A stretch of 64,000 nucleotides of DNA, from contig CAWJZV010000030.1 in assembly GCA_963847445.1 (NCBI GenBank), positions 1-64,000 of the forward strand. The letters run 5' to 3'. Source of the DNA: an uncultured delta proteobacterium. GTDB taxonomy: Bacteria > Desulfobacterota > Binatia > UBA9968. Made by a program: the position numbers and the translations under genes. Below are positions 42,831 to 55,988 of this stretch, piece by piece. How positions within the stretch are numbered: position 1 is the first letter of the stretch; each line of letters begins with the position of its first letter. Under the pieces are notes generated by a model. It did not search any database and was not told where the DNA came from. It saw only the letters and a program-made list of their open reading frames with translations.

Positions 42831-45247
42831 GCAACCGTTCACGCAGCAAAGAAGGGCCGCGCCATGTCACCGGCCGCGGTCTTTTCACCGATGATTTCAC
42901 AATTGCCCGGCATGCTCCAGGCGATGATTCTGCGCAGTCCGCACGCCCATGCGAAAATACTTTCCGTCGATGCCTCGGAAGCGCTCAACCAGCCCAACGT
43001 GTTTGCCGTGGTCACCCCCGACGATGTCAAAAAACTGACCAAGCCCTTCAAGCCCGGCCGCTATGCCGCCGGTTTGAAAAGACCAATTGACGAGTACGCC
43101 GGCGCCGTCGACAAGGTCCGCTATGTCGGCGAGCCCATCGGCGCGGTGGCGGCATGGGATCGCGGCACGGCGGAAGATGCTCTCGAATTGATCCAAGTCG
43201 ACTACGAGCCGCTGCGCCCCAACGTCGACGTGCACGAAGCGATCAAGCCGTCGTCGGCGGCTTTATTCGACGAGCTCGGCACCAATCTGGCCTGGACCGG
43301 TTCGCTGCAATACGGCGACATCGACGCTGCGTTCAAGTCCGCCGATCGCGTCGTCACCGAGAAATCTGAAAATTCATCGCTACAGCTCGACGCCGTTGGA
43401 ACCCTTCAACGTCATCGCCTCCTTTGACGCCGCGAGCAAACGCTTGACCGTGTGGGTGACGGCGCAGGTGCCGGAAGTGATTTACGACGGCCTGCGCGAA
43501 GCGCTTGGGGCTGCAAGACGTTCGCGTGATCATTCCCGATGTCGGCGGCGGCTTCGGCCAGAAGATTCATTTGATTCGCAAATACGTCGTGCTGGTGTCG
43601 CTCTTGGCGATGAAAACCGGCCGGCCGGTGAAATGGATCGAGGACCGCACCGAGCACATGATGGCCGGCGGCCATGCCTGCGCTCAGGAAGTCGAAGCCG
43701 AAGCGGCGGTGAAGAACGACGGCACGGTGCTCGGTCTCAAATTCAAAGAATATGATGACGTCGGCGGCTCGATCAGCACGCTGACGATTCACTTCACCAA
43801 CAAGCTCAACAATCTGTCGAACACCTACAAGACGCCGGCCATCTACATGGAAGGCAATGCGGTGGTGACCAACAAGTGCCCGGTCATTCCCAACCGCGGC
43901 ATCGGCAAGCCGGGCATGTGCTTCATCTGGGAACGGATGATGGACCGGGTGGCCCAGGCGCTGAACTTGAGCCCCATCGAAGTGCGCCGGAAAAATCTCA
44001 TCCAGGCCAACGAGATGCCCTACACGCACCATCAGCGGCAACGTCTACGACAGCGGCGATTACCCCGGCCTGCTGAAAACGCTTTTGGAGAAAATCGACT
44101 ACGACAAGCTGCGCGAAGAGCAGAAAACAAGCGCGCGAACAAGGCAAGCTGATCGGCATCGGCATCGTCATCGGCGTCGAGCCCGGCGGGCGCAATGCGG
44201 CGCGCGACATGGCGATCTTTCCCGAGATGAAAGAACCGCCCGGCTCCGGCGGCGTCAACGGCGCGAAAATTAAACTGGAGAAAAACGGCACGCTGTCGCT
44301 CCACTTGGGCTCGCCCAACTGCGGCCAGGCGCATGAGACGACGACGGCGCAGGTCGCCGCCGATATTCTCGGTTCGACGCCGGATAAGATTCAGCACCAG
44401 CATCCCCTTCGACAGCGATCTGTCGTCCTGGGGCGTGGCCGCGGCCAATAGCGGCAATAACTTTCACTTATACGATATCGGCGCGATCCACGGCGCAGCG
44501 ACCAAGCTGCGCGAGAAGATTCTCAAGCTCGCCGCTTTCAATCTCAAAGCCGAACCGTCCGAACTGATCATTGAAGACAGCGTCGTGAAAGTCCCCGGCG
44601 CGGCGGCGAAACAAATCACCTTCGCCGAGTTGGGCCGCATCGCCTACAACAACCAGCATCTGATCCCCGACGACATGGAACCGGGGCTAGAGGCGACCTT
44701 CTACTACATGTTTCCCCACGCCAAACCGAACATCGTGCCCGGCGCCGACCGCAAGGTGCGCGCGCAGTTTACCTTTTCCGCCGGCGCCCATGCGGCCATC
44801 GTCGAAGTCGACAAGAACACCGGCGCGGTGCATGTGCTGCGCTATTTGATCGTCGGCGACAACGGCACGGTGATCAATCCCGATGTCGTCAACGGCCAGG
44901 TTTACGGCTCGGCGGCCCACGGCATCGCCGTCGCCCTGGGCGAGGGTTTCATGTACAGCCCCGAGGGCCAGCCGCTGACGATCACCTATCTCGACTACGG
45001 CAAATGCTCGACGGCGGAGACGCCGCGCGTCGAAGTCATCCATCAGCCCTCGCCGTCGCCGTTCACCTCGCTGGGCCAGAAAGCCGCCGGCGAAGGCGCG
45101 GCGATCCCCTCGCCCGCCGCCATCGCCAGCGCCGTCGAGGATGCCTTGCAGCCCTACGGCGTGAAAGTTTGCGAGTTGCCGATCACACCCGAAGCGGTGT
45201 GGCGCTTGATCAATCACAATCCGGAAAAAGAGCGGAGGACTTTCTAG
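42815..45247 (+). CDS. CoxL-like molybdopterin hydroxylase large subunit (several frameshifts)
   Basis: [39 protein letters not shown]. Confidence 0.85.
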
Positions 45248-45249
45248 TC

Positions 45250-46110
45250 ATGATTCCCGGCTCTTTCGAATACTTTGCGCCCCGTTCTCTCGACCGATGC
45301 GGTAAAGTTCCTGGCGGATCATCGCGACGATGTAAAAATTCTCTCCGGCGGGCAGAGCTTGCTGCCGCTGATGAAGATGCGCTTGTCAAAGCCCGCCTAC
45401 ATCGTCGACATCGGCCGCATCCCCGGCTTGGATACGATCAGCGAAGACGGCAACAATCTCATCATCGGCGCGCTGGTCACCCACGAACAGATCGAATATT
45501 CCGACCTGCTCAAGGTTAAATGCCCGCTGCTGCCGCAAACCGCCACGACCATCGCCGACGTGCAGGTGCGCAACCGCGGCACCATCGGCGGCAGCATCGC
45601 CCACGCCGATCCGGCCGGCGATTGGCCGGCTGCGGTCATCGCCCTTGACGCCGAGATTCGCGTCTTCGGTCCCAGCGGCGAGCGTTGGGTCAAGTGTGAC
45701 GACTTCTTTCTCGGCTTGCTTGATGAGTGTGCTCGGAACCGGATGAGATCGTCACTGGAATCAAAGTGCCGGTGACCGGCAGCGACAAGACCGCCTATCA
45801 GAAAGCCGCGCCACGCTCTTCCGGCTTCGCCGTCACCGGCGTCGCCGTGCGTTTGGCGGTCGATGCCGCCGGCACATGCAGCCGCGCGGCCATCGGCATC
45901 ACCGGCGTCGGCGACAAGGCTTACCGCCCCGAGCGCACCGAGCAGATGTTAACCGGCAAGAAGCTCGACGCGAAATTGATCGAGGACGCGGCCGCCGAGT
46001 CGACGCGCAATATCGAAGTCATCGAAGACATCAACGGCTCGTCGGAATACCGCGCCCATCTGACTCATGTCTACGTCGTTCGCGCGATACAAGAAGCATT
46101 GAGCCGATAG
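45250..46110 (+). CDS. FAD-binding medium subunit (frameshifted)
   Basis: SGGQSLLP, QVRNRGTIGGSIAHADP, DINGSSEYR. Confidence 0.88.
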
Positions 46111-46163
46111 CGGCAACCTACGGCAATTGATGTGGAGGCGCAGCATGCTGCGCCCTGGCCTTT

Positions 46164-47048
46164 TCACATAACCTGGCGGCGCAGGTAGGCGCTGATGTAA
46201 TCGACAATCGTCACCAAAATGTAAATCGCTATGATTAAGGTCAGCAACTGCTGCTCAAAAAATAAGCTGATGGCGATATGGATGCGCTGGCCTAAACCGC
46301 CGGCGCCAACCAGCCCCAACACCGCGGCCATGCGAATGTTAACTTCCCAGCGATAAAGCGTGTAGGAAATAAACTGCGGCAGCACCTGCGGCACGATGCC
46401 GTAGAATAATATTTGCAACCGATTCGCCCCGGTGGCTTGGAGCGCTTCGATGGGCTGGGAATCGACGTTTTCCAGCACTTCACCGAAGAGTTTGCCAAGC
46501 ACGCCGCCGGTGTGAACGCCGAGGGCGAGGACCCCCGGAAACGGCCCGAGGCCGACGAGAAATACAAAGATCAACGCCCACACCATCTCCGGCACCGTGC
46601 GCAGTATATTGAGCAGGCTCTTCGCCGCGAGATAGGGCACGATGCGCGCCTTGCGCCGCCAACCCTGTTTGGGCTCCATCTCATAGAGCAAACCGGAAAA
46701 TATTAAGTTGCGCGAAGCGAAAAATACCACTGACAGCGCGATGGCCACGGCCAGGAGCGTTCCCATGAAGGAAATCGCGAAGGTCTCAATGCTCCCCTTC
46801 ATCGCCTCGTGCAAGACGTTGGGCGAAAGATCCGGTGGCAGCAATTTTTTTATGTAGATGAGGATCTGTCCGAAGCTGTCGGCGCTGAAGAGCTGCGCCA
46901 GATCGATGCCCGCGCCGCGATAGCTCCAGATAAGAAAGGCGCCAAAGGCCAAACCGATGGCAGCGTTCTTCCATGTCGAGGGCGTGGCAGCACGGGCGCG
47001 GGTCGGCGGAATCGTCTCACAAGCGTTCGGCAGCGGCGACGGGCTCAT
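46164..47048 (-). CDS. phnE: PhnE/PtxC family ABC permease
   Basis: RTVPEMVWA, YRWEVNIR, LGLVGAGGLG. Confidence 0.88.
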   Translation of the reverse strand: MSPSPLPNACETIPPTRARAATPSTWKNAAIGLAFGAFLIWSYRGAGIDLAQLFSADSFGQILIYIKKLLPPDLSPNVLHEAMKGSIETFAISFMGTLLAVAIALSVVFFASRNLIFSGLLYEMEPKQGWRRKARIVPYLAAKSLLNILRTVPEMVWALIFVFLVGLGPFPGVLALGVHTGGVLGKLFGEVLENVDSQPIEALQATGANRLQILFYGIVPQVLPQFISYTLYRWEVNIRMAAVLGLVGAGGLGQRIHIAISLFFEQQLLTLIIAIYILVTIVDYISAYLRRQVM

Positions 47049-47899
47049 AGCATGGCACGCACTTTCGCGCTCAAGTAATCCACTGCGGCAACCATCAGAA
47101 ACAACATGATCAAGATCGTCAGCACTTCATTGAAATTGAACATGCGCATGGAGATTTCGATCTGCTGGCCCAAGCCGCCGGCGCCGACCAAGCCTAAAAT
47201 TGCCGAGGCGCGCACAGCGCACTCCCAGCGATACAGCGTATAGGAAACGAAATTGGGCAGCGCCTGGGGAAACCAGCCATAGAAAAACACCTGCAGCTTA
47301 TTTGCCCCGGTGGCCTGCAACGCTTCCAGAGGCCGGGAATTCACCGACTCGAAGATCTCTGAATAGACTTTGCCGAGCATGCCGCCGTAGGCGACCCCGA
47401 TGGCGAGCACGCCGGGAAACGGCCCCAAGCCGACGGCGCGAACGAACATGAAGGCCCAGACGAATTCCGGTATTGAGCGGAATAGACTCAGCAAGCCGCG
47501 CGCGACCAGATAGATGCCCTGACGTAGACCCCGGCGTAGGGGCGCGCCTTGGAGCTCGGCATCGTTGAGGATGCCGCCGACGACCAGCGTATGGGTGCCC
47601 AACAGTCCGAGTGGAAAACCGATCAGAACCGCGATCGCCGTGCCCCAGATAGAGATTTGAATAGTCTCTAAAGCCGGACGCAGCATCAAGGATAGAAAAT
47701 TCCACGAGACCTCCGGCGGAAACATGCCGGTAAGAAATTTCCCCAACGACGCGCGCCCGCGGTTGGAAAAAAACAGCTCCGGCTCGATCCCCGCCCTTCT
47801 CCAACTGTCGACGAATACTATTACGAAGAGAGCCGCGAAAAGATAGGGAAAGTAGGCTTTAGCTGAGCGAAGGGTAAGCGATGGGCTCGATGGTTTCAC
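47045..47899 (-). CDS. phnE: PhnE/PtxC family ABC permease
   Basis: RSIPEFVWA, YRWECAVRAS, LGLVGAGGLG. Confidence 0.88.
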   Translation of the reverse strand: MKPSSPSLTLRSAKAYFPYLFAALFVIVFVDSWRRAGIEPELFFSNRGRASLGKFLTGMFPPEVSWNFLSLMLRPALETIQISIWGTAIAVLIGFPLGLLGTHTLVVGGILNDAELQGAPLRRGLRQGIYLVARGLLSLFRSIPEFVWAFMFVRAVGLGPFPGVLAIGVAYGGMLGKVYSEIFESVNSRPLEALQATGANKLQVFFYGWFPQALPNFVSYTLYRWECAVRASAILGLVGAGGLGQQIEISMRMFNFNEVLTILIMLFLMVAAVDYLSAKVRAML

Positions 47900-48683
47900 G
47901 CGCGGTCTCGGTCACGGCAGGGTCGCGAAAATTGCCGGAGTACAAATCCTCTAACATATCCTCGCCGATCTTGTCAGGGGACAGATCGAAAGTTACCCGG
48001 CCCTGCTTGATGCCAACGACGCGAGGGAAATAGGCGAGCGCGAGGTCGACACTGTGCAGGCTGACCAGCAAAGTCTTGCGCGTGTTTTGGCTGATATCGA
48101 CCAACAGCCGAACAATCGACGAAGCCAGGGTGGGGTCGACGGATGAAACCGGCTCATCGGCAAGAATAACTTCAGGGTCCTGCACCAAGACACGGGCGAT
48201 CGCGACTCGCTGCTGTTGGCCGCCGGAGAGCTCATCGGTACGCTCAAAAATCTTCTCGGGGATTTCCACTTGGCTGAGCGCGCTGTGGACAAGTTCGACA
48301 TCGGCTGGCTTGCACAAAGACAAGAGCGACCGCAGCGTCGGCCAGCGGCCCAATTGGCCGGCTAGGACGTTATGAATCACGCGCAGGCGCGGCACTAGAT
48401 TATGCTGTTGGTAAACGCTGCCGATGCGGCGCCGCACATGGCGTAAACGCTGGCCATGCAATAAGTCAATATCTTCGCCGTCAATATAAAGTTTTCCCGA
48501 AGTCGGCCGGAGCGTGCAGTTGAGCAGACGAAACAGCGTGGTCTTGCCGGCGCCGCTGGGACCGATCAGGGCGACTTTCTCGCCCTGATCGATCTTTAGA
48601 TCGATGCCGTCGAGCGCCACCTGAAGGCGGCCAAACTCCTTGCGTACGGATTCGAGTTGATATTGCCGGGCCGGGGTGTTCAC
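47859..48683 (-). CDS. phnC: PhnC-like ABC ATP-binding protein
   Basis: GPSGAGKTT, LSGGQQQRVAIAR, LADEPVSSVDP. Confidence 0.9.
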   Translation of the reverse strand: MNTPARQYQLESVRKEFGRLQVALDGIDLKIDQGEKVALIGPSGAGKTTLFRLLNCTLRPTSGKLYIDGEDIDLLHGQRLRHVRRRIGSVYQQHNLVPRLRVIHNVLAGQLGRWPTLRSLLSLCKPADVELVHSALSQVEIPEKIFERTDELSGGQQQRVAIARVLVQDPEVILADEPVSSVDPTLASSIVRLLVDISQNTRKTLLVSLHSVDLALAYFPRVVGIKQGRVTFDLSPDKIGEDMLEDLYSGNFRDPAVTETARETIEPIAYPSLS

Positions 48684-48688
48684 GCGAT

Positions 48689-49546
48689 TTACTTGAACAG
48701 GCCAGCCGCCACCGCCGCCTCTTCGATGCCCTTCCAGTCCGCATCCTTGGCGACGATGTAGCCCTTGGTGCGGTGCAGGTCGAGAAGCTTTTTGTCGTCG
48801 GGTTTGTTGTAGTCGAGTTTGAGAAACGCTTTGGTGATTTTTTCGACCGTAGCCTTGTCGACACCGGCGCGCACGGTCCAGACGTAATCGACATAAGGCG
48901 GCGTGGTCCAGAAAATATTCACCTTGCTGGTATCGACCTTTTTGGTTTCGACGAGCTTATCCCAAACCAAGAAATTCAACGCGCCGGCATCCACCTGGCC
49001 GGATTCGACCCAAGCGGCAGTCGCATCGTGGGCACCGCTAAAGCTGAACTTGGAAAAATCTTTTTCCGGGTTGACGCCGCCTTTGATCAAGAAGTAGCGC
49101 GGCATCAGATGCCCGGAAGTGGAACTGACGCTGCCGAATGCAAAGGTTTTGCCCTTTAAATCTTTCAGACCTTTGATGCCCGTGTCCTTTCGGGTGATAA
49201 AGTGGCTCTTAAACTCGGCGTCCTCTTTGCGCATGATGACACGGTGCGCGCCTTTGGCCTGCTTGGCAGCTTGCACAGACGTCAAGCCGCCGTACCAAAC
49301 CATTTCCAGGCGATTGGCGGCGAGACCTTCAACCGTCGCGGCGTAATCGACCACGGGAGTGAATTTGACTGGAATGCCGATCTCCTTGGTCAAATAATCG
49401 GCAAACGGCGCATAGATGCGCAGCATCTCCTGCGGGTTTTCATCGGGAATCGCCGATATTCGTAATTCCTTCAACCCCTGGGCTTGCGTGCTAGCCCAAC
49501 CCAAAGAGATTGCCAGAGCCGCCGCAAAAAATACTACTCGCTTCAT
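48689..49546 (-). CDS. PhnD-fold binding protein, putative selenate ABC transporter subfamily
   Basis: SAIPDE, WYGGLTSVQA, GSVSSTSGHLMPR, FSGAHDAT, TTPPYVDYVWTVR recalled as typical of the putative selenate subfamily. Confidence 0.75.
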   Translation of the reverse strand: MKRVVFFAAALAISLGWASTQAQGLKELRISAIPDENPQEMLRIYAPFADYLTKEIGIPVKFTPVVDYAATVEGLAANRLEMVWYGGLTSVQAAKQAKGAHRVIMRKEDAEFKSHFITRKDTGIKGLKDLKGKTFAFGSVSSTSGHLMPRYFLIKGGVNPEKDFSKFSFSGAHDATAAWVESGQVDAGALNFLVWDKLVETKKVDTSKVNIFWTTPPYVDYVWTVRAGVDKATVEKITKAFLKLDYNKPDDKKLLDLHRTKGYIVAKDADWKGIEEAAVAAGLFK

Positions 49547-49594
49547 GATCTCCCCCTTATAAATATCGCTCACAATCGTGACCCATGTTAGATA

Positions 49595-49631
49595 ACAGAG
49601 ACAGCCTATAAGTCAAATCGATTTTATCTAT
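49595..49631. promoter_or_regulatory. Paired LysR-type boxes upstream of the transporter
   Basis: ACAG-N7-CTAT (49595..49609) and ATCG-N7-CTAT (49617..49631), 22 bp apart. Confidence 0.55.
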
Positions 49632-49713
49632 CGGTGCCGAGCGAACAAAGGCAGCGGCTACGCTCCCGTGCAATAGCCGGTTGCCCAGGACGTGCAAGCC
49701 GTCCGGCGGCGCG

Positions 49714-50185
49714 CTAACTTTGCGCTTTCAGAAAATCCATCACGGCTTCAGGATGCTCCTCGGCCTTTTTAACAGTCGTCCAGTGCTTGATCACGTCGCC
49801 TTTGGGATCGATCACGACCGTGGAACGGATCGTGCCCTGCACCTCTTTGCCGTACATCATCTTCTTGCCGAAGGCGCCGTATTTTTTCATCACCTCGGTC
49901 TTGGGATCTGAAAGCAATATGAAGGGCAATTTATAACTTCTCGACGAACTTGTTGTGGGACTCGATGCTATCCTTACTGACACCGAGAACGACCGTTCCG
50001 GATTTCTTCAATGCAGCATTCAAATCGCGAAATCCGCAGGCTTCTTTGGTGCAACCGGGCGTGTTGTCCTTTGGATAAAAATAAATCACCACGGTTTTGC
50101 CTTTGTAGTCGTCCAGTGAATGCGTCTTGCCATCGTTGCCTTCCAGGCTAAATGCCGGCGCTTTCTTGCCTTCTAAACTTGCCAT
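49714..50185 (-). CDS. bcp: Peroxiredoxin BCP/PrxQ, Cys form (1-nt frameshift near 49934)
   Basis: [18 protein letters not shown]; Cys45 TGC at 50051..50053. Confidence 0.9.
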
Positions 50186-50252
50186 CGGTTTATTCCTCCT
50201 AGACTTGTCGAACGGATATTCAAAACGCTGATGAATTATTTAGCACCGCCGG

Positions 50253-51053
50253 TCAAACTAACGAAACCCGCTCGGCCTTGTGCGCCATCGCGCGTATCGG
50301 ATCGTAGTCGTGATCATCGGCGGCGGTAAAACGCAACCATCGGCCATCCGCGAGGACCTTGCGGCCAGCGGGATCGAGATGCATCTCGACGAGCAACTGG
50401 CGCAGCGCCTGCCGTTGGGATGCCGCAACCTGGCGCGAGATCACCCAGGGCGGAATCGGACTCGGCCCGATGGTGTCGATCACGCGAATTTCATCCGCTA
50501 GATCATTTCGCTGGCCGCCGAGCCACTCCAACACGGTGCTGTCGATGGCCGCGCCGTCGACGGCTCCCGATAAGATCATTTGCAACGACTTGGTATGGGC
50601 GCCGGCTTCCACCGCCGCGGCAAAAAAATTATCGATTTCACCGAGATCGAAGAGATGCGCGCGCACGACGTTGAAACCGGAATGGGAACGCGGCTCGTTG
50701 TAAGCCCAGGTCGCGCCACGGAGGTCACGGAAAGATCGGCAAGCGCTGTCCCGCCGCACCACCACATCGGAGAAATACACCGGTCTGGATCCGTAGCGCT
50801 CTCCCACCGGTATCGGCACGGCGAGCAACTCCATACTGCTCTCGGCAAGGTCGGCCTTGTGGACGTAGGGTAATCCACAGAGCCAAAGCACTTGAATCTC
50901 GCCGCGATCGAAGAGCGCTTCACGCTCCTGCCAGGGCATGCCGGTCACATACTCCGTCGGGACATTGAGCTTCCCTTGCAGATACCCGGCGATAGCTCGA
51001 CAGAAATCTTCGGTGTTCTCCGCCATGCAGGAAGCGAGCTTTAAAGGATTCAT
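50253..51053 (-). CDS. PhnD/SsuA/transferrin-family binding protein without signal peptide
   Basis: WLCGLPY, YFSDVVV, YNEPRSHSG, GAHTKS, GPSPIPP. Confidence 0.8.
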   Translation of the reverse strand: MNPLKLASCMAENTEDFCRAIAGYLQGKLNVPTEYVTGMPWQEREALFDRGEIQVLWLCGLPYVHKADLAESSMELLAVPIPVGERYGSRPVYFSDVVVRRDSACRSFRDLRGATWAYNEPRSHSGFNVVRAHLFDLGEIDNFFAAAVEAGAHTKSLQMILSGAVDGAAIDSTVLEWLGGQRNDLADEIRVIDTIGPSPIPPWVISRQVAASQRQALRQLLVEMHLDPAGRKVLADGRWLRFTAADDHDYDPIRAMAHKAERVSLV

Positions 51054-51066
51054 CGAGGCGGAACTG

Positions 51067-51348
51067 CTACTCGCTGACCGTCACGCCACGCCAAAAGGCA
51101 ACGTAGTTTTTAATCGAGCCCGCCGCCTCTTTGGGTTCTGGATAAAACCAAGCGGCATCTTGGTTGACCTGGTCGCCCACCTTGACGTGATAGTAACTGG
51201 CCAGCCCTTTCCAGGGACAAGTGCTGTGGGTGTCGCTCGGCGCGAAGCAATCTTTCTTGATCGATTCCGGCGGAAAGTAATGGTTGCCTTCGACGACGAT
51301 GGTTTCGTTTGATTCGGCGACAACCGTATTCTTCCAAACTGCTTTCAT
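51067..51348 (-). CDS. DUF427 domain protein
   Basis: VVEGNHYFPP, STCPWKGLASYY, AAWFYPEPK. Confidence 0.9.
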   Translation of the reverse strand: MKAVWKNTVVAESNETIVVEGNHYFPPESIKKDCFAPSDTHSTCPWKGLASYYHVKVGDQVNQDAAWFYPEPKEAAGSIKNYVAFWRGVTVSE

Positions 51349-51374
51349 GATCAATCCTTTCGATTTACTACGGG

Positions 51375-52736
51375 TCAGTCAGTGACGCAGCGAAACTTGG
51401 CGAACACATAGGGATAGTGCGCTTGATACCAATTGCGAAAACTTGGCCGCAGCAGTGCCGCATCGGTGGCCCAGGACGCGCCTTTGACGACAAAATGTTT
51501 GCCGTCGAAAAAATCCTTGGAATAGTCGGGATAGGTCGTCATGTAGGGCGTGAACCCCGGCAGCGGTGCAAACGGTGTATCGGTCAGCTCCCAACCATTG
51601 CCGACCAGCTCTTGAACTCCCCAGCGGCTAGCACCCGCGGGATGTGAACCGACCGGCTGCGGCGACCATGCGCCAAAGTTGAAGTTGCCATGGCGGGCCG
51701 CAGGCTCGGCATCGCCCCAAGGATACGCCGACTCCCGTTCGTCTGGACCGTAGTAGGCGGCGCGCTGATATTCGGCCTCGGTCGGCAAGCGCTTGCCGCG
51801 CCACGCGGCATAGGCACGCGCTTCAGCCAGACTTACGTAGACCGGCCAACTGGCAACTTGCTCCAGCGGAAATTGGTCGAACATCGCACGGTATGACCAG
51901 GTGTCATCCTGTTTGAACCAACCGGTCGGATGTTGTTTCTTCTCAAGTTCTTTCCAGTGCCAATCATCCTCGCGCCAGTAGCGGCGCGCCGCGTAGCCAC
52001 CGGAAAGAACAAACTCGAGATATTCGCCATTGGTAACCGGCAAAGAGTCCATCGCGAAGCCTGCGACATCAACCGTGATCTCGGAGAACTCATTGTCCCA
52101 GCCAAAAGTGATATCTTCTAATCGCGCCCCCAACCGGGCTCTGCCTGGGGGAATGCGAATACTCTCCGCTCTTGCGGCGCGCCCGAATGCGTAACGGGCA
52201 AGACTCGCGCGGCCGAACTTTATCGCCGGGCGCCATCTGCTGCATCATGTAGAGCAAGGTCTCTTGATGCATGTATTCATGCTCCAAGATCAGCTCAAAG
52301 ACGCGCCCGCCTTGGGCCAACAGATCGGTAGAACGGCAATAGCCGAGCGCATCAGTCGACTCTAAGAGAGAGCGCCGGACTTTGTCACGATACTCGAGGG
52401 TCTCACCAAGGCTGGGCCATTGATCCGGTACTTCCGGGTGCCAGTGGCATTCGCCGGTGTCGACGTCGGGATCGATGCCGCGGCAGAACAGATCGTCAAA
52501 ATAAGCATTGAACAGACGGCCAGTGCAGAATGCCGCCGCAAACCTGGTTCCAGGAAAACGCCGGCAAATGACCGATATAAAAAATAAACGGATGACGCCA
52601 AACGATCGGCTTGGTCAAACGTTTGGCCGGTGCCAACGATGGCGAAAATCTTGTCTGAACGCGCCCAGGCATCGACCAACCTGTCACGCAACTGCTCGGC
52701 AGCGCTCGGACCGCGGCTCTTTAACGGCAGTGCCAT
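51375..52736 (-). CDS. DinB + FGE-sulfatase non-heme iron sulfoxide synthase (EgtB/Egt1/OvoA/SenA superfamily), frameshifted
   Basis: RHPFIFYIGHLPAF, FCRGIDPDVDTGECHWHPEVPDQWP, EHEYMHQETLLYM iron-ligand motif, KRLPTEAEY, RPSFRNWYQ. Confidence 0.85.
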
Positions 52737-52753
52737 AACTCGGTACCTCCATT

Positions 52754-52785
52754 AATTAGCTATATACTAAATAGGAATTAGCTAT
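52754..52785. promoter_or_regulatory. LysR-type box upstream of sulfoxide synthase
   Basis: ATAG-N7-CTAT at 52771..52785; AATTAGCTAT repeated 22 bp apart. Confidence 0.6.
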
Positions 52786-52829
52786 GTAAGACCGCGGAGG
52801 TAAAATTTCGATGAAAAAAATGCCGCAGA

Positions 52830-53742
52830 TTATCGGTGTTTGAGAAAATCGCGGAAAGCTTGGGCGATGGGATGGAACGGCCGGCGGCTATGAAAGACTT
52901 GGTAGAAGTTGCGTTCGAGTTTCAGGCCACGGATCGGCACTTCGACGATGCTGCCTTGATCGAGCTCATGGCGAATCGAGATGCGCGATAAAATCGAAAA
53001 GCCGTAACCGGCCATCAGGGCTCCCTTGACGGCTTCCGTGCTGCCAAGCTCCATGGTGATGTTCAAAAGGTCGTGGGCGGGCGGTTTGCGTTTGACCGAG
53101 CAATTGCCGGATGGAATCCAACGTCCCCGAGCCATGTTCGCGTGAAATGAATCGTTCACTGCGCAGGTCCGCGACTTCGATCGCTTTACAGCGGCTCCAT
53201 GGATGGCCTTTGGGCACGGCGACGACCATTTCGTCATCCCAAATCTTTTCGAAACTAAGTCTAGGATCGTCGCCTTTGAAGCCGACGAAGCCGATCTCGA
53301 CCTTGCCATCCAAGAGATCGGCGACCACACCGGCGGAATCGCCAATGCGCAGGATCGGTTTTACCTGGGGAAACTTTTTGATGAACTCGCCGAGCTTTTG
53401 CGGCAGGAGATATTCGCCGGGAATGCTGCTGCCGCCGACCCAAAGCTCGCCGCTGAGAGTGCCGTGAAATTGCTCCACCGCGGCGACGGTTTCGCGTTTG
53501 AAGGCGAGTAGATTCTTCGCCCGTTCGGCGAGCATGAGGCCCAACGGCGTCAGACTGATCTTGCCCGGCATGCGGTAGAGCAGTTTGCCACCCACCGCTT
53601 CTTCGAGCTCTTGGACATGAGCGCTGATGGTGGGCTGGCGCAGCGAGAGCAGCTCGGCAGCCTGAGAAAAACTCTTATGTTCAGCGACCCAGTAGAAAAT
53701 TTCTAATTTGTGGAGATCGAGGTCGGCTTTGATTTTCGCCAT
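52830..53742 (-). CDS. LysR family regulator (CysL/CmpR-like, resembles selenium-metabolism-associated LysR), frameshift near 53090
   Basis: HTH SFSQAAELLSLRQPTISAHVQELE; GSSIPGEYLLP, REHGSGT, ELGSTEAVK. Confidence 0.85.
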
Positions 53743-53762
53743 GGAACAGGAAAAGCTTTGTC

Positions 53763-53808
53763 GCTGAGGGAGCGCGCCATTACAAACAATCGGCCGCGCT
53801 CCCTCAGC
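53763..53808. other. 14-bp perfect hairpin between Sec-peroxiredoxin and LysR
   Basis: GCTGAGGGAGCGCG...CGCGCTCCCTCAGC. Confidence 0.7.
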
Positions 53809-53822
53809 TAGGGTTTGACTAC

Positions 53823-54290
53823 TTACTTACCGAGGAATTCCAACACTTCCGCCGGATGGGCGCCGGCGTCAGTGACAGGAATCCAATGCTTCTTAATCGT
53901 GCCATCGGGGCCGATCAATGCGGTCGAGCGGATCGTCCCTTCCGAGACTTCGCCCGCGGCATTTTTGCGCGGTCCCCAGGCGCCATAGGCTTTCATGGTT
54001 TCTTTCTGCTGGTCGGCTAAGAGCACGAACGGCAGGTTGAACTTGTTGATGAACTGATTGTGAGAGTCGATGCCATCCGGGCTGACACCTACAACCACGG
54101 TATTGGCTTTCGTCACGGTATCGATAGCGTCGCGGAACCCGCACGCTTCTTTGGTTCAGCCAGGTGTGTCGTCTTTCGGATAAAACCACAGAATGACGTT
54201 TTTGCCGGCGTATTCCGCCAGCGAATGTTGCTTGCCGTCGCTCCCCGCCAAAGTGAACGCCGGCGCTTTTTGCCCTTCAAGTCCTGCCAT
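53823..54290 (-). CDS. Selenocysteine-containing peroxiredoxin BCP/PrxQ (155 aa, Sec45)
   Basis: Single frame from ATG 54290 with GGAGG RBS: WFYPKDDTPG-TGA(54158..54156)-TKEACGF; TGA aligns with Cys45 of the paralog. Confidence 0.88.
54127..54146 (-). promoter_or_regulatory. Bacterial SECIS-like stem-loop
   Basis: GCGUGCGG-GUU-CCGC(G)ACGC starting 10 nt after UGA, G in apical loop. Confidence 0.75.
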
Positions 54291-54308
54291 GAAGCACCTC
54301 CGTATTAA

Positions 54309-54325
54309 GATAGTGTTTGTCTATC
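54309..54325. promoter_or_regulatory. LysR-type palindromic box upstream of Sec-peroxiredoxin
   Basis: GATAG-TGTTTGT-CTATC (T-N11-A core). Confidence 0.65.
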
Positions 54326-54408
54326 ACACCGATAATCTATCTATCAATGATCGAGGACCGGCCATTGGCATTGTCAACGGCAATGCTTGACGGTATATTT
54401 TCGCAACT

Positions 54409-55578
54409 ATGGCAAAGCGATCGACCCTATCGGATTTGCACGAACGCCAAGGGGCGACTTTTATCGAACGGGACGGCTGGCTATTGCCCGACCATTTCGG
54501 CGATCCGGCGAGCGAGTACAATTCGGTTCGTGAATCCGCCGGCCTGTTCGACCTCGCCAATCGCGCCATGCTGCAATTCACCGGCGAGGACCGGCTATCC
54601 TATCTGCAAGGCATGCTATCCAATGATCTGCGCCCGCTTAAAATGTTCGATGGCCAGCAGGCGACGATTCTGACGCAGCAGGGCAAGGTGGTCGCCGATG
54701 TTCGCGTACTCTGCTCCTTGAACTCTTTTTACCTGGATTTCTGGGAGCCGCTCAAGGAAAAGATTCTCACCCATCTCAATCGCTATCTGGTCGCCGATGA
54801 CGTAGAGATCCATGATCCCAATGAGCAATGGAAAATGCTTTCGCTGCAAGGGCCGCGGGCGCAAGTGATGCTTGATCAAGTGTTTGCCAATGCCGAGCTG
54901 CCGGCGCACGCGAATCACCATGGCATGGTGCAATTCGACGGCACTCCGGTCTGCGTCGTGCGCGCCGATCGCACGGGCCATGACGGCTTCGATCTGATCG
55001 TGCAAACTTCTCAGCTCCTAACCTTTGCCCAACGCCTGACCGAGCTCGGCGCGGCCTGGGTCGGCGCACAGGCGCAGAATATCTTGCGCGTCGAAGCCGG
55101 TATGCCTCGTTACGGCGTCGATTTCTCCGAAGATAATCTGCTTCTTGAAGTTGCCCTGGATGACGCCGTGAGTTTCACCAAGGGCTGTTATTTGGGCCAG
55201 GAAGTCGTCGAGCGCATCCGCTCGCGCGGCCATGTCAACAAGAAGCTATGCGGGCTCTTGCTCGATGGCGACACCCCGGCAAGCCCTGGCGACAGGATCA
55301 GCGCCAGCGGCAAAGAGGTTGGCCAGATTACCAGCTCCGTCGCCTCCCTCGCCCTCCAGCGGCCTATTGCCTTGGGCTATGTCAACAAGGACTGCTGGAC
55401 GCCGGGCACCAAGTTGGCGGTAAGCCATGGCGGCAGTGAATTCGCGCGCGACGATAACCTGCAAGACCGATCGTCCCCGCTGCACACCCTGGCCCTTGAA
55501 TCCATGTCTCAACTCCGTATATTAGGCGGAAATTTGCTCCAGCTCAGAAAGGAACTTCGGCAATGGCCAATTTCGTAA
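54409..55578 (+). CDS. GcvT/YgfZ-like folate-binding aminomethyltransferase family protein (3' end probably frameshifted)
   Basis: SFTKGCYLGQEVVERI motif, RADRTG, LRVEAG. Confidence 0.88.
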   Translation: MAKRSTLSDLHERQGATFIERDGWLLPDHFGDPASEYNSVRESAGLFDLANRAMLQFTGEDRLSYLQGMLSNDLRPLKMFDGQQATILTQQGKVVADVRVLCSLNSFYLDFWEPLKEKILTHLNRYLVADDVEIHDPNEQWKMLSLQGPRAQVMLDQVFANAELPAHANHHGMVQFDGTPVCVVRADRTGHDGFDLIVQTSQLLTFAQRLTELGAAWVGAQAQNILRVEAGMPRYGVDFSEDNLLLEVALDDAVSFTKGCYLGQEVVERIRSRGHVNKKLCGLLLDGDTPASPGDRISASGKEVGQITSSVASLALQRPIALGYVNKDCWTPGTKLAVSHGGSEFARDDNLQDRSSPLHTLALESMSQLRILGGNLLQLRKELRQWPIS

Positions 55579-55871
55579 AAGTCTGCAAAACCGATGAGGT
55601 CAAAGGCGGTTGCGGCAAAAGCTTAGAGATCGACGGCAAAGCCATCGGCGTGTTCAATGTCGACGGCAAGTTCTACGCGATCAACGATGTCTGCGGCCAC
55701 CGCGGCGGCCCGCTCGCCGAAGGCGAGATGGATGGCACCACCGTGATCTGTCCCTGGCATGGCTGGCGCTACAACGTCACCACCGGCGAAAACGAATTGT
55801 TGCCGGCTCTGCCCACGGAAAAGTATGAAGTCCAGGTCGAAGGCGACGACGTACTGGTCGATTTAGGTTAG
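55563..55871 (+). CDS. Rieske-type ferredoxin
   Basis: CGHRGGPL and CPWHGW motifs. Confidence 0.92.
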   Translation: MANFVKVCKTDEVKGGCGKSLEIDGKAIGVFNVDGKFYAINDVCGHRGGPLAEGEMDGTTVICPWHGWRYNVTTGENELLPALPTEKYEVQVEGDDVLVDLG

Positions 55872-55988
55872 TCTAATCCACAATAAAGCAGTGGAGGCCC
55901 GCAGCTTGAATCAAGCTCGCGGGCCTTTTGTTATGCGGTGAATACGTTGTTGAGCTGACCGGTTCAGTAAAGCGCTCTTGCTTTTTCC

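Follow-up and report, generated by a model that had tools for sequence, protein, structure and literature searches.

Two genes for one peroxiredoxin, both on the minus strand and with active-site codons 4105 nt apart, are the subject of this analysis of a 64,000-nucleotide stretch of contig CAWJZV010000030.1 (hereafter, the window) from an uncultured delta proteobacterium of the Binatia. Comparison with related sequences makes it highly probable that these are duplicated PrxQ/BCP-type genes, of which paralogue A (53823..54290) is a true selenoprotein gene with a selected in-frame selenocysteine insertion sequence (SECIS), whereas paralogue B (49714..50185) is the cysteine (Cys) form of the same peroxiredoxin and is evolutionarily labile. 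The original prediction, made from the letters of this DNA, had placed a selenocysteine (Sec) and a Cys paralogue about 4 kb apart, had both encode TKEACGFRD after residue 45, and had quoted the codons as GCG TGC GGG TTC CGC GAC GCT in A and GCC TGC GGA TTT CGC GAT TTG in B; the coordinates were confirmed, the peptide is identical in the two copies, and the codons are exact. It overlooked three things, namely the break in the frame of B, the existence of B as a Sec gene in congeners, and the conserved selenium-linked cluster around the pair.

Paralogue A has 155 codons and specifies a 155-residue AhpC/TSA protein, provided that the in-frame TGA at codon 45 (54156..54158, minus strand) is decoded as Sec. 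Its match to PF00578 (1.1e-36; 125.9 bits against a cut-off of 26) gives it the domain of the Sec-containing peroxiredoxin (Sec-Prx) family, and its active site reads P38-K-D-D-T42-P-G-U45 (PxxxTxxU), where the TGA occupies the peroxidatic position, opposite the corresponding Cys of B in the alignment, and a second Cys, Cys50, follows at +5. In BCP/PrxQ enzymes, the second Cys at +5 serves as the resolving Cys, and thioredoxin is the reductant. TGA at codon 45 is conserved in all 33 distinct A orthologue sequences and is found also in 44 distant homologues, the frame beyond it remaining open and conserved. In paralogue B, sequence comparison identifies codon 45 as TGC (50051..50053, minus strand), and identity between the A and B proteins is 64% over residues 1-84, 49% over residues 84-153, and ~57% overall. 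The best NCBIfam matches of both A and B are PrxQ and BCP-type thiol peroxidase, all under curated cut-offs.

The predicted SECIS hairpin of A (54123..54149, minus strand; GCGUGCGG-GUU-CCGC(G)ACGC plus two outer pairs) was delimited by folding, silent sites, and covariation. According to the original prediction, synonymous codons build this hairpin in the Sec copy and break it in the Cys copy. Consistent with this, a 36-nt fold starting at codon 45 reached -12.6 kcal/mol in A, with 6 of 200 shuffles as good, whereas the corresponding fold of B reached -3.5 kcal/mol, with 165 of 200 shuffles as good. The hairpin of A has (i) a 3-nt loop, GUU, that starts with G-U, (ii) a stem of 4+4 bp, (iii) a spacing of 17 nt, and (iv) an energy of -11.6 kcal/mol, all within the published criteria for bacterial SECIS (bSECIS) elements, which comprise a loop of 3-9 nt, an upper stem of at least 4 bp, a G in the first two loop positions, a spacing of 16-37 nt from the UGA, and an energy of -7.5 kcal/mol or lower (PMC13188914); the bSECIS model used here was coded by us from these criteria and is not bSECISearch itself. 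Of the recodings of its own peptide, 93% fold at least as well as the Cys copy, which places it near the unstructured end. Taken by itself, this one genome provides hairpin evidence that is only moderately convincing.

The stronger evidence comes from relatives. We searched 61 genomes, this one included, and a collection scan added further sequences; after deduplication, the set comprised 33 Sec forms of A, 9 Sec and 12 Cys forms of B, 44 more distant Sec forms, and 8 distant Cys forms. One unpublished genome, G005, supplies 1 of the 33 A sequences (L035/L084) and 1 of the 12 Cys forms of B (L071), and no conclusion rests on it. Over codons 49-55, which cover the stem and the loop, silent-site diversity in A was 0.026, as against 0.466 elsewhere, which is the lowest value (rank 1) among 139 seven-codon windows (30 of the 33 rows; two frameshifted copies and one truncated at a contig end were dropped). 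In the Cys forms of B, by contrast, the same codons showed a diversity of 0.45 versus 0.41 elsewhere, ranking 102 of 139 (10 of the 12 rows; the window copy was deliberately excluded, and L056 was lost to a filter aimed at a broken A copy), while the Sec forms of B showed 0.226 versus 0.418 elsewhere, ranking 4 of 139 (all nine rows). Moreover, the glycine codon GGG, which accounts for 12% of Gly codons (190,628 codons sampled), encodes the hairpin glycine in 30/30 rows of A, in 9/9 Sec forms of B, and in 2/9 Cys forms of B. The comparison of synonymous sites between Sec and Cys orthologues that the original prediction had called for thus reveals a freeze in the former and none in the latter, and its description of the pair as an internal control for SECIS selection is upheld, silent sites being frozen in Sec orthologues and free in Cys orthologues.

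The bSECIS model separates the same groups, being passed by 33/33 A sequences, 8/9 Sec forms of B, 0/12 Cys forms of B, and 0/8 distant Cys forms, over a background of 42/400 and 27/400 among random synonymous recodings. The stem also covaries. A compensatory change from G-C to A-U was found in L093 (paralogue A) and in L131 (labelled Vulcanimicrobiota), and the stem pair at columns 15-30 is GC in 12, AU in 2, UG in 3, and GU in 1 of the entries across 19 sequences from at least four phylum labels.

Several results pull in the other direction. Over 76 nt, neither copy folds differently from its shuffles (z 0.49 and 0.93). Among 3000 synonymous recodings of the peptide, 2.4% equal A in folding over the 30-nt core (p ~0.024), and 12% (0.12) do so over 45 nt. 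The 45-nt energies also overlap between groups, ranging from -5.0 to -16.8 kcal/mol in the Cys orthologues of B (lowest in L062, -16.8, and L063, -13.7 kcal/mol) and from -11.3 to -14.8 kcal/mol in A, so that what discriminates Sec from Cys forms is a conserved, correctly placed hairpin and not foldability; raw minimum free energy was accordingly rejected as a discriminator, on account of this overlap and of the 76-nt null. The bSECIS coding is itself an imperfect test, because just 23 of the 44 distant Sec forms pass it, and the orthologues share descent, such that 33/33 does not stand for 33 independent events. With regard to family assignment, A scores under the equivalog cut-offs for PrxQ (NF053650; 155.4 against 260 bits) and BCP (NF006960; 116 against 140 bits), as does one B orthologue (176.2 against 260 and 131.7 against 140 bits, respectively). 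Lastly, selA and selB are frameshifted as assembled, so that the Sec machinery of the host looks broken on the letters alone, and searches of the assembly, which is 91.8% complete, did not recover a full tRNA-Sec gene (selC).

These points bear on the contrary view, namely that the peptide EACGFRD and GC-rich codon usage produce the hairpin incidentally, without selection for a SECIS, and that TGA45 is a stop codon or a sequencing error. The peptide is indeed hairpin-prone in itself, folding under any coding (recoding null mean of -7.8 kcal/mol for the 30-nt core), and ~10% of recodings satisfy the loose bSECIS model. Set against this are the presence of TGA in all 33 distinct A sequences and in the 44 distant homologues with an open and conserved downstream frame, the confinement of the silent-site freeze to Sec forms, the compensatory changes in the stem, and the failure of all 20 Cys forms in the bSECIS model. 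We consider the by-product view effectively refuted, its probability being negligible. The original prediction would have been undermined had Cys orthologues folded equally well; no Cys form passes the bSECIS model (0/20), and the raw 45-nt energies overlap.

Our preferred explanation of A as a selenoprotein gene can be laid out as follows. A and B would have arisen by duplication within this genus-level lineage, in which the records of relatives bear the label Candidatus Binatia or 'uncultured delta proteobacterium'. In A, UGA45 takes the place of the peroxidatic Cys of PxxxTxxC, and the hairpin formed by codons 48-56 sets an apical loop beginning with G-U 17 nt past the UGA. As in the bacterial Sec pathway generally, SelB with Sec-tRNA(Sec) would bind this hairpin and deliver Sec, giving a product with a selenol as its peroxidatic residue, which Cys50 would resolve; both Sec insertion into A and its dependence on thioredoxin we infer from sequence. 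As the hairpin is embedded in the reading frame, selection freezes codons 49-55 at their silent positions, the rare glycine codon GGG included, whereas B uses TGC and needs no SECIS, so that its silent positions have drifted and its hairpin is gone. In congeners, B occurs as a Sec gene with either a hairpin of the A type or a second hairpin design.

The distribution of the two copies illustrates how labile B is. Copy A is present in 24 of 30 genomes of the genus, each with one TGA, and B accompanies it in 18 of these 24, without a stop in 12 and with a TGA in 6. The two copies share a contig in 16 of the 18 genomes, with B 3.2-4.6 kb downstream, and lie on separate contigs in G010 and G017. 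A Sec gene and a Cys isogene thus occur together in this genome and in 12/18 B-bearing congeners, while both copies are Sec in 6/18 (G008, G010, G011, G014, G021, and G029); in all, B is Sec in nine distinct sequences of the genus. Their hairpins follow two designs. The first is of the A type and in the same place, with GCUUGCGG-GUU-CCGCGAGC in L059 and a wider loop, GCUUGCG-GGUUU-CGCGAGC, in L066 and L068; the second, GGGUUC-CGUGAUUU-GAACCC, takes in the next two codons (Asn-Pro) and occurs in L061, L064, L070, L087, L090, and L097. Read by eye, the sequence of the window copy of B retains 5 of the 6 pairs of this second design.

In a codon tree built with codons 45-60 removed, A and B each form a clade with 100/100 support. 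The Cys forms of B do not constitute one clade, and the branches starred in that tree force at least two changes of state, whereas a single clade of Sec forms of B is not rejected (p-AU 0.47, approximately unbiased test). A quick protein tree of 102 rows concurs, and in it the Sec forms of other phyla fall outside A+B. Since the starred branches split the Cys forms, the sequences indicate at least two Sec/Cys conversions in B after the duplication, in either direction; for comparison, a 2026 review regards Sec-to-Cys changes as rare in bacteria (PMC13188914). No link was seen between the state of B and the gene downstream of it: a transporter follows Cys forms in the window, L076, and L089 and a Sec form in L087, and a transglutaminase-like gene was found downstream of both Cys and Sec forms.

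As assembled, B is split into two frames (49931..50185 and 49714..49929) because of one extra base at 49934..49936, which is absent in 5/5 aligned relatives. Frame 1 stops at a TAA after 84 codons, and the remainder continues in another frame down to 49714; PF00578 is recognised in both the N-terminal part (2.1e-27) and the C-terminal part (6e-07). Apart from the extra base, both halves are open and conserved relative to A, without additional stops, and the B orthologues of relatives are uninterrupted, except for the copy in G027, which is also split. A programmed +1 frameshift was ruled out because the aligned relatives lack the extra base and the B orthologues read through. Insertions of this kind are frequent in the window, which, compared with all five aligned relatives, has single-base insertions at no fewer than eight sites in 6.5 kb; beyond B, these comprise three in an EgtB-like gene, one in a LysR gene, two at the 3' end of a GcvT-like gene, and one more further on. 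Three other studies provide short-read contigs that are 97-98% identical to the window, and at all five of the insertion sites under them (52199, 52511/52513, 52621, 52829, and 53094) the extra base is missing; these contigs inform neither on 49934-49936 nor on the TGA at 54156-54158.

Might B, then, be a true pseudogene in this genome, with a real frameshift and with the Sec copy alone functional? The break does stand in the assembled sequence, and no contig of the other studies spans 49934-49936, a point that also counts against our explanation of the pair. Yet one-base insertions recur in this assembly: the EgtB-like gene has three, and LysR, the 3' end of the GcvT-like gene, selA, and selB are affected too. 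All five insertion sites under independent contigs are free of the extra base there, and each half of B still reads open and is conserved (64% and 49% identical to A, respectively), free of any other stop. Furthermore, G003, the closest relative at 89.6% nucleotide identity, shows the reverse, with A broken and B intact, which is the pattern expected of random errors. Because similar insertions are many and the covered ones are absent from independent contigs, we read the break in B as a probable assembly error, a pseudogene being improbable, and the frame breaks in LysR and in the EgtB-like gene are most likely assembly errors as well. Other genes in window positions 43400-55900 are split too, namely a CoxL-like gene (43505-45247, three pieces) and a CoxM-like gene (45275-46110, two pieces), and gene calls on this assembly need to be read with single-base insertions in mind.

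The host carries a selA-selB-selD operon on contig C14, with an in-frame TGA within selD; selA (569.8 bits) and selD (360.3 bits) score above their cut-offs, and selB lies in four pieces. At C14:191492-194790, selA and selB are likewise split by single-base insertions. For selC, a search with Rfam RF01852, in which 150 of 964 first-look candidates were scored, returned tRNA-Ser and tRNA-Leu as the best matches, and a motif scan gave nothing credible; neither the window nor the surroundings of the sel operon contained a candidate. An ARAGORN candidate for tRNA-Sec on C2 was rejected, having a poor acceptor stem and no Rfam match. BLAST with the selC of congeners recovered a 3' fragment alone, of ~35 nt (C12:77569-77602; 97-100% identical), that corresponds to the T-arm and the acceptor end and could be either part of an unassembled selC or a tRNA end duplicated by an integrating element. 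A tRNA-Sec was present in five of the five congeners tested (73-77 bits).

The pair is embedded in a run of genes that are all co-directional on the minus strand, from 54290 down to 46164, in the order PrxQ-A, LysR_Se, EgtB-like, DUF427, PhnD-like, PrxQ-B, and putative selenate ABC transporter. The order PrxA-LysR-EgtB-like-DUF427-(PhnD-like)-PrxB is retained throughout the genus on contigs of sufficient length, and B is followed by a transglutaminase-like gene, in most relatives, or by the transporter. The latter lies directly downstream of B in the window, L076, L087, and L089, and in L082, LysR directly precedes it.

Next to A, the LysR-type regulator (52830..53742) belongs to the selenium metabolism-associated subfamily NF040786 (LysR_Se/HrsM-like). 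It is split near 53094-53098 by an extra base that is absent both in relatives and in the contigs of three studies; its parts score 191.3 and 57.5 bits on NF040786, the intact orthologue in L072 scores 267.8 bits, above the equivalog cut-off of 250, and it is the sole such gene in the genome. The LysR_Se subfamily is described as restricted to Sec-decoding organisms with SelD and as lying near selenium-related genes (PMC5322559); in keeping with this, the genome contains selD and other Sec genes, and selenium-related genes lie nearby. The next gene (51375..52736) encodes a homologue of the EgtB/OvoA/SenA sulfoxide synthases (DinB_2 and FGE-sulfatase domains), spread here over at least three frames by three one-base insertions and intact in the orthologue at L072:7554-8912. 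SenA makes selenoneine. The protein scores under all three NCBIfam cut-offs (258.8/400, 224.5/360, and 220.3/420) and may, judging from these matches, represent a distinct subfamily that makes a sulfur- or selenium-histidine compound. The remaining genes before B encode a DUF427 protein (51067..51354; 3.9e-33), which is conserved in the cluster, and a protein with a PhnD-like substrate-binding fold (50253..51053), which is under all NCBIfam cut-offs and missing in some relatives. Beyond B, the putative selenate ABC transporter consists of a substrate-binding protein (48689..49573; TIGR04553, 334.9 bits against a cut-off of 250) and, by profile search, a PhnC-like ATPase (47859..48683) and two PhnE-like permeases (47045..47899 and 46164..47048); TIGR04553 is itself a 'hypothetical equivalog', and selenate as its substrate is unproven.

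Two noncoding elements flank A. Upstream, an alignment of 32 upstream regions revealed a conserved block (54291..54347, minus strand) comprising TTGAT, ~17 nt, TGTGATAGA, and then GGAGGT, which resembles an extended -10 promoter followed by a ribosome-binding site; a GATAG-N7-CTATC dyad overlaps this block in the closest relatives. Downstream, in the 80-nt gap between A and LysR, a perfect inverted repeat (53762..53809, minus strand) with arms of 14 bp and a loop of 20 nt folds at -35.9 kcal/mol, a value that none of 200 shuffles reached, and the tail after it is poor in U. This repeat is a possible terminator, attenuator, or protein-binding site. Given this block and the hairpin before LysR, A and B can be transcribed separately. 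A scan for consensus promoters and terminators gave counts no higher than in shuffles, and a search of aligned upstream regions for operators found the region upstream of B poorly conserved, with no conserved operator. In the closest relatives only, a palindrome, ATTCA-N9-TGAAT (50218-50236), lies upstream of B, and a similar one, GTCAA-N9-TTGAC, lies upstream of A in the Prx-A/GcvT-like intergenic region; the two palindromes are candidate LysR boxes.

How the pair is regulated was the other concern of the original prediction, which took the Cys form for a backup used under selenium limitation and switched by the adjacent LysR. The LysR_Se subfamily was predicted in 2015 (Lin et al. 2015, via PMC5322559), and in PMC5322559, it is defined, equated with archaeal HrsM, and assigned selenophosphate as its proposed effector; HrsM is reported to repress Cys isogenes at adequate selenium (PMC11097638). 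Selenium-responsive control by the LysR of the window, including the switching of a Cys backup, is hence a reasonable analogy, albeit one that we hold only tentatively. Under such a switch, LysR_Se would sense selenium (by analogy, selenophosphate from SelD), repress B and the putative selenate uptake operon when selenium is replete, and let B substitute for A when it is scarce, an arrangement that we regard as possible but doubtful. It would agree with the single-copy LysR of a selenium-linked family, with the position of B directly upstream of the TIGR04553 transporter in the four loci named above and of LysR before the transporter in L082, with the HrsM precedent in Methanococcus (PMC11097638, PMC5322559), and with the promoter-like block of A and the strong hairpin that parts A from LysR. 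It fits poorly with the finding that nine distinct B sequences from the genus (in 6 of the 18 B-bearing genomes) are Sec, as there can be no Sec/Cys backup of this kind in those congeners. In most relatives, moreover, the gene after B is the transglutaminase-like gene and not the transporter, the cluster genes are co-directional and not divergent, and B has no conserved operator upstream. LysR stands beside Sec-Prx in 0 of 56 more distant loci, the adjacency being confined to this genus, which makes the linkage a single evolutionary event. A non-exhaustive full-text literature search gave, among the matches read, no report of a bacterial Sec/Cys switch controlled by LysR_Se.

Alternatively, A and B may be sub-functionalised paralogues with no backup relation, serving different partners or substrates. 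As parts of the same joint reading, the Sec/Cys state of B would vary with the selenium or oxygen of the habitat, or nearly neutrally, and LysR would control selenium uptake and the EgtB-like genes, without any peroxiredoxin switch. The chances of this reading fall just short of even. The age and clear separation of the A and B clades speak for it, as do the retention of both copies (B in 18 of 24 A-bearing genomes), the toggling of B between Sec and Cys with six genomes in which both copies are Sec, and the frequent Sec/Cys conversions described for thiol oxidoreductases (PMC1794560). On the other hand, the active-site peptide TKEACGFRD is identical in A and B, with no sign of different substrates, and the conserved co-location with a selenium-family regulator would still need explaining. 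On balance, we place sub-functionalised paralogues with a labile B slightly ahead of the LysR switch, the two readings being compatible. A bolder proposal, by analogy and in our estimate unlikely, is that the cluster is a bacterial counterpart of the HrsM system, in which one LysR_Se would couple selenium status to a Sec peroxiredoxin, to its Cys or second Sec paralogue, and to selenate uptake, and in which the EgtB/OvoA/SenA-like enzyme might make a sulfur- or selenium-histidine derivative belonging to the redox module. If this were true, the repeated Sec/Cys flips of B and its two hairpins would reflect the adaptation of soil lineages to local selenium supply.

Each element of this system has a published relative. 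Sec-Prx (PF00578, TxxU) is listed as an established family of bacterial selenoproteins (PMC13188914), with 12 members and 5 Cys-to-Sec conversions given in PMC1794560; A shares with it the AhpC/TSA fold, Sec at the peroxidatic Cys of PxxxTxxU, and an in-frame SECIS directly downstream. It differs in being PrxQ/BCP-like with a second Cys of the CxxxxC type, in scoring 41 bits on the NCBIfam PrxU model (cut-off 270), and in belonging to a tandem-region Sec/Cys or Sec/Sec pair from soil metagenome-assembled genomes (MAGs) labelled Binatia. The HrsM system of Methanococcus resembles the cluster in that its LysR falls in the same selenium-linked subfamily and that one genome encodes both Sec and Cys isogenes (Frc/Vhc against Fru/Vhu hydrogenases); it is, however, archaeal, has its SECIS in the 3' untranslated region, and is regulated in a manner shown by experiment, whereas here the protein is a peroxiredoxin, the SECIS is in-frame, control by the LysR is a proposal, and both copies are Sec in several congeners. 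As in LysR_Se (NF040786), the orthologue is above the curated cut-off, SelD and Sec genes are present in the genome, and selenium-related genes are neighbours, but the published link is to selA/selB/selD neighbourhoods (PMC5322559), while the LysR described here adjoins a selenoprotein gene near a putative selenate transporter, and the sel operon is on another contig. Lastly, Sec/Cys homologue pairs and remnant SECIS-like hairpins downstream of Cys codons were published in 2006 (Zhang et al. 2006, Fig. 4; PMC1794560). We likewise contrast the in-frame hairpin between Sec and Cys forms; unlike that study, ours compares paralogues of one genome and ~20 orthologues of a genus that toggle their state, which permits a quantitative silent-site test. 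With Sec-Prx, Sec/Cys pairs, the constraint imposed by an in-frame SECIS, and LysR_Se all in print, no new principle or mechanism is put forward here.

What the pair offers is a natural experiment within one genus, in which one nine-residue peptide has three encodings, namely behind UGA with frozen silent sites, behind UGC with free silent sites, and behind UGA with a different hairpin. These are ready variant sets for reporter tests of the minimal needs of a bacterial SECIS, and they indicate that a Cys gene is only a few silent substitutions away from Sec competence. Furthermore, the cluster would tie the predicted, experimentally untouched bacterial LysR_Se family to concrete candidate targets. 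This value is limited by the fact that the organisms are known solely as MAGs and that each element has already been published.

Sec forms of the peroxiredoxin (WFYPKDDTPG-U) were also seen in MAGs labelled Acidobacteriota, Vulcanimicrobiota, Gemmatimonadota, Latescibacterota, Planctomycetota, Dormiibacterota, and Polyangia (L101-L151). In the forms labelled Vulcanimicrobiota, Ser replaces the second Cys (EASQFRD), and a 7-bp hairpin is still found at the same place. In a sister genus of the same order (g9; L049-L053), 18 of 19 genomes contain a Sec-peroxiredoxin with TGA at the same codon and two DUF427 genes beside it, a family also represented in the window cluster; its hairpin, CCYGYA-GUA-URCGGG, stays paired despite substitutions that change amino acids (C/R and I/L/M).

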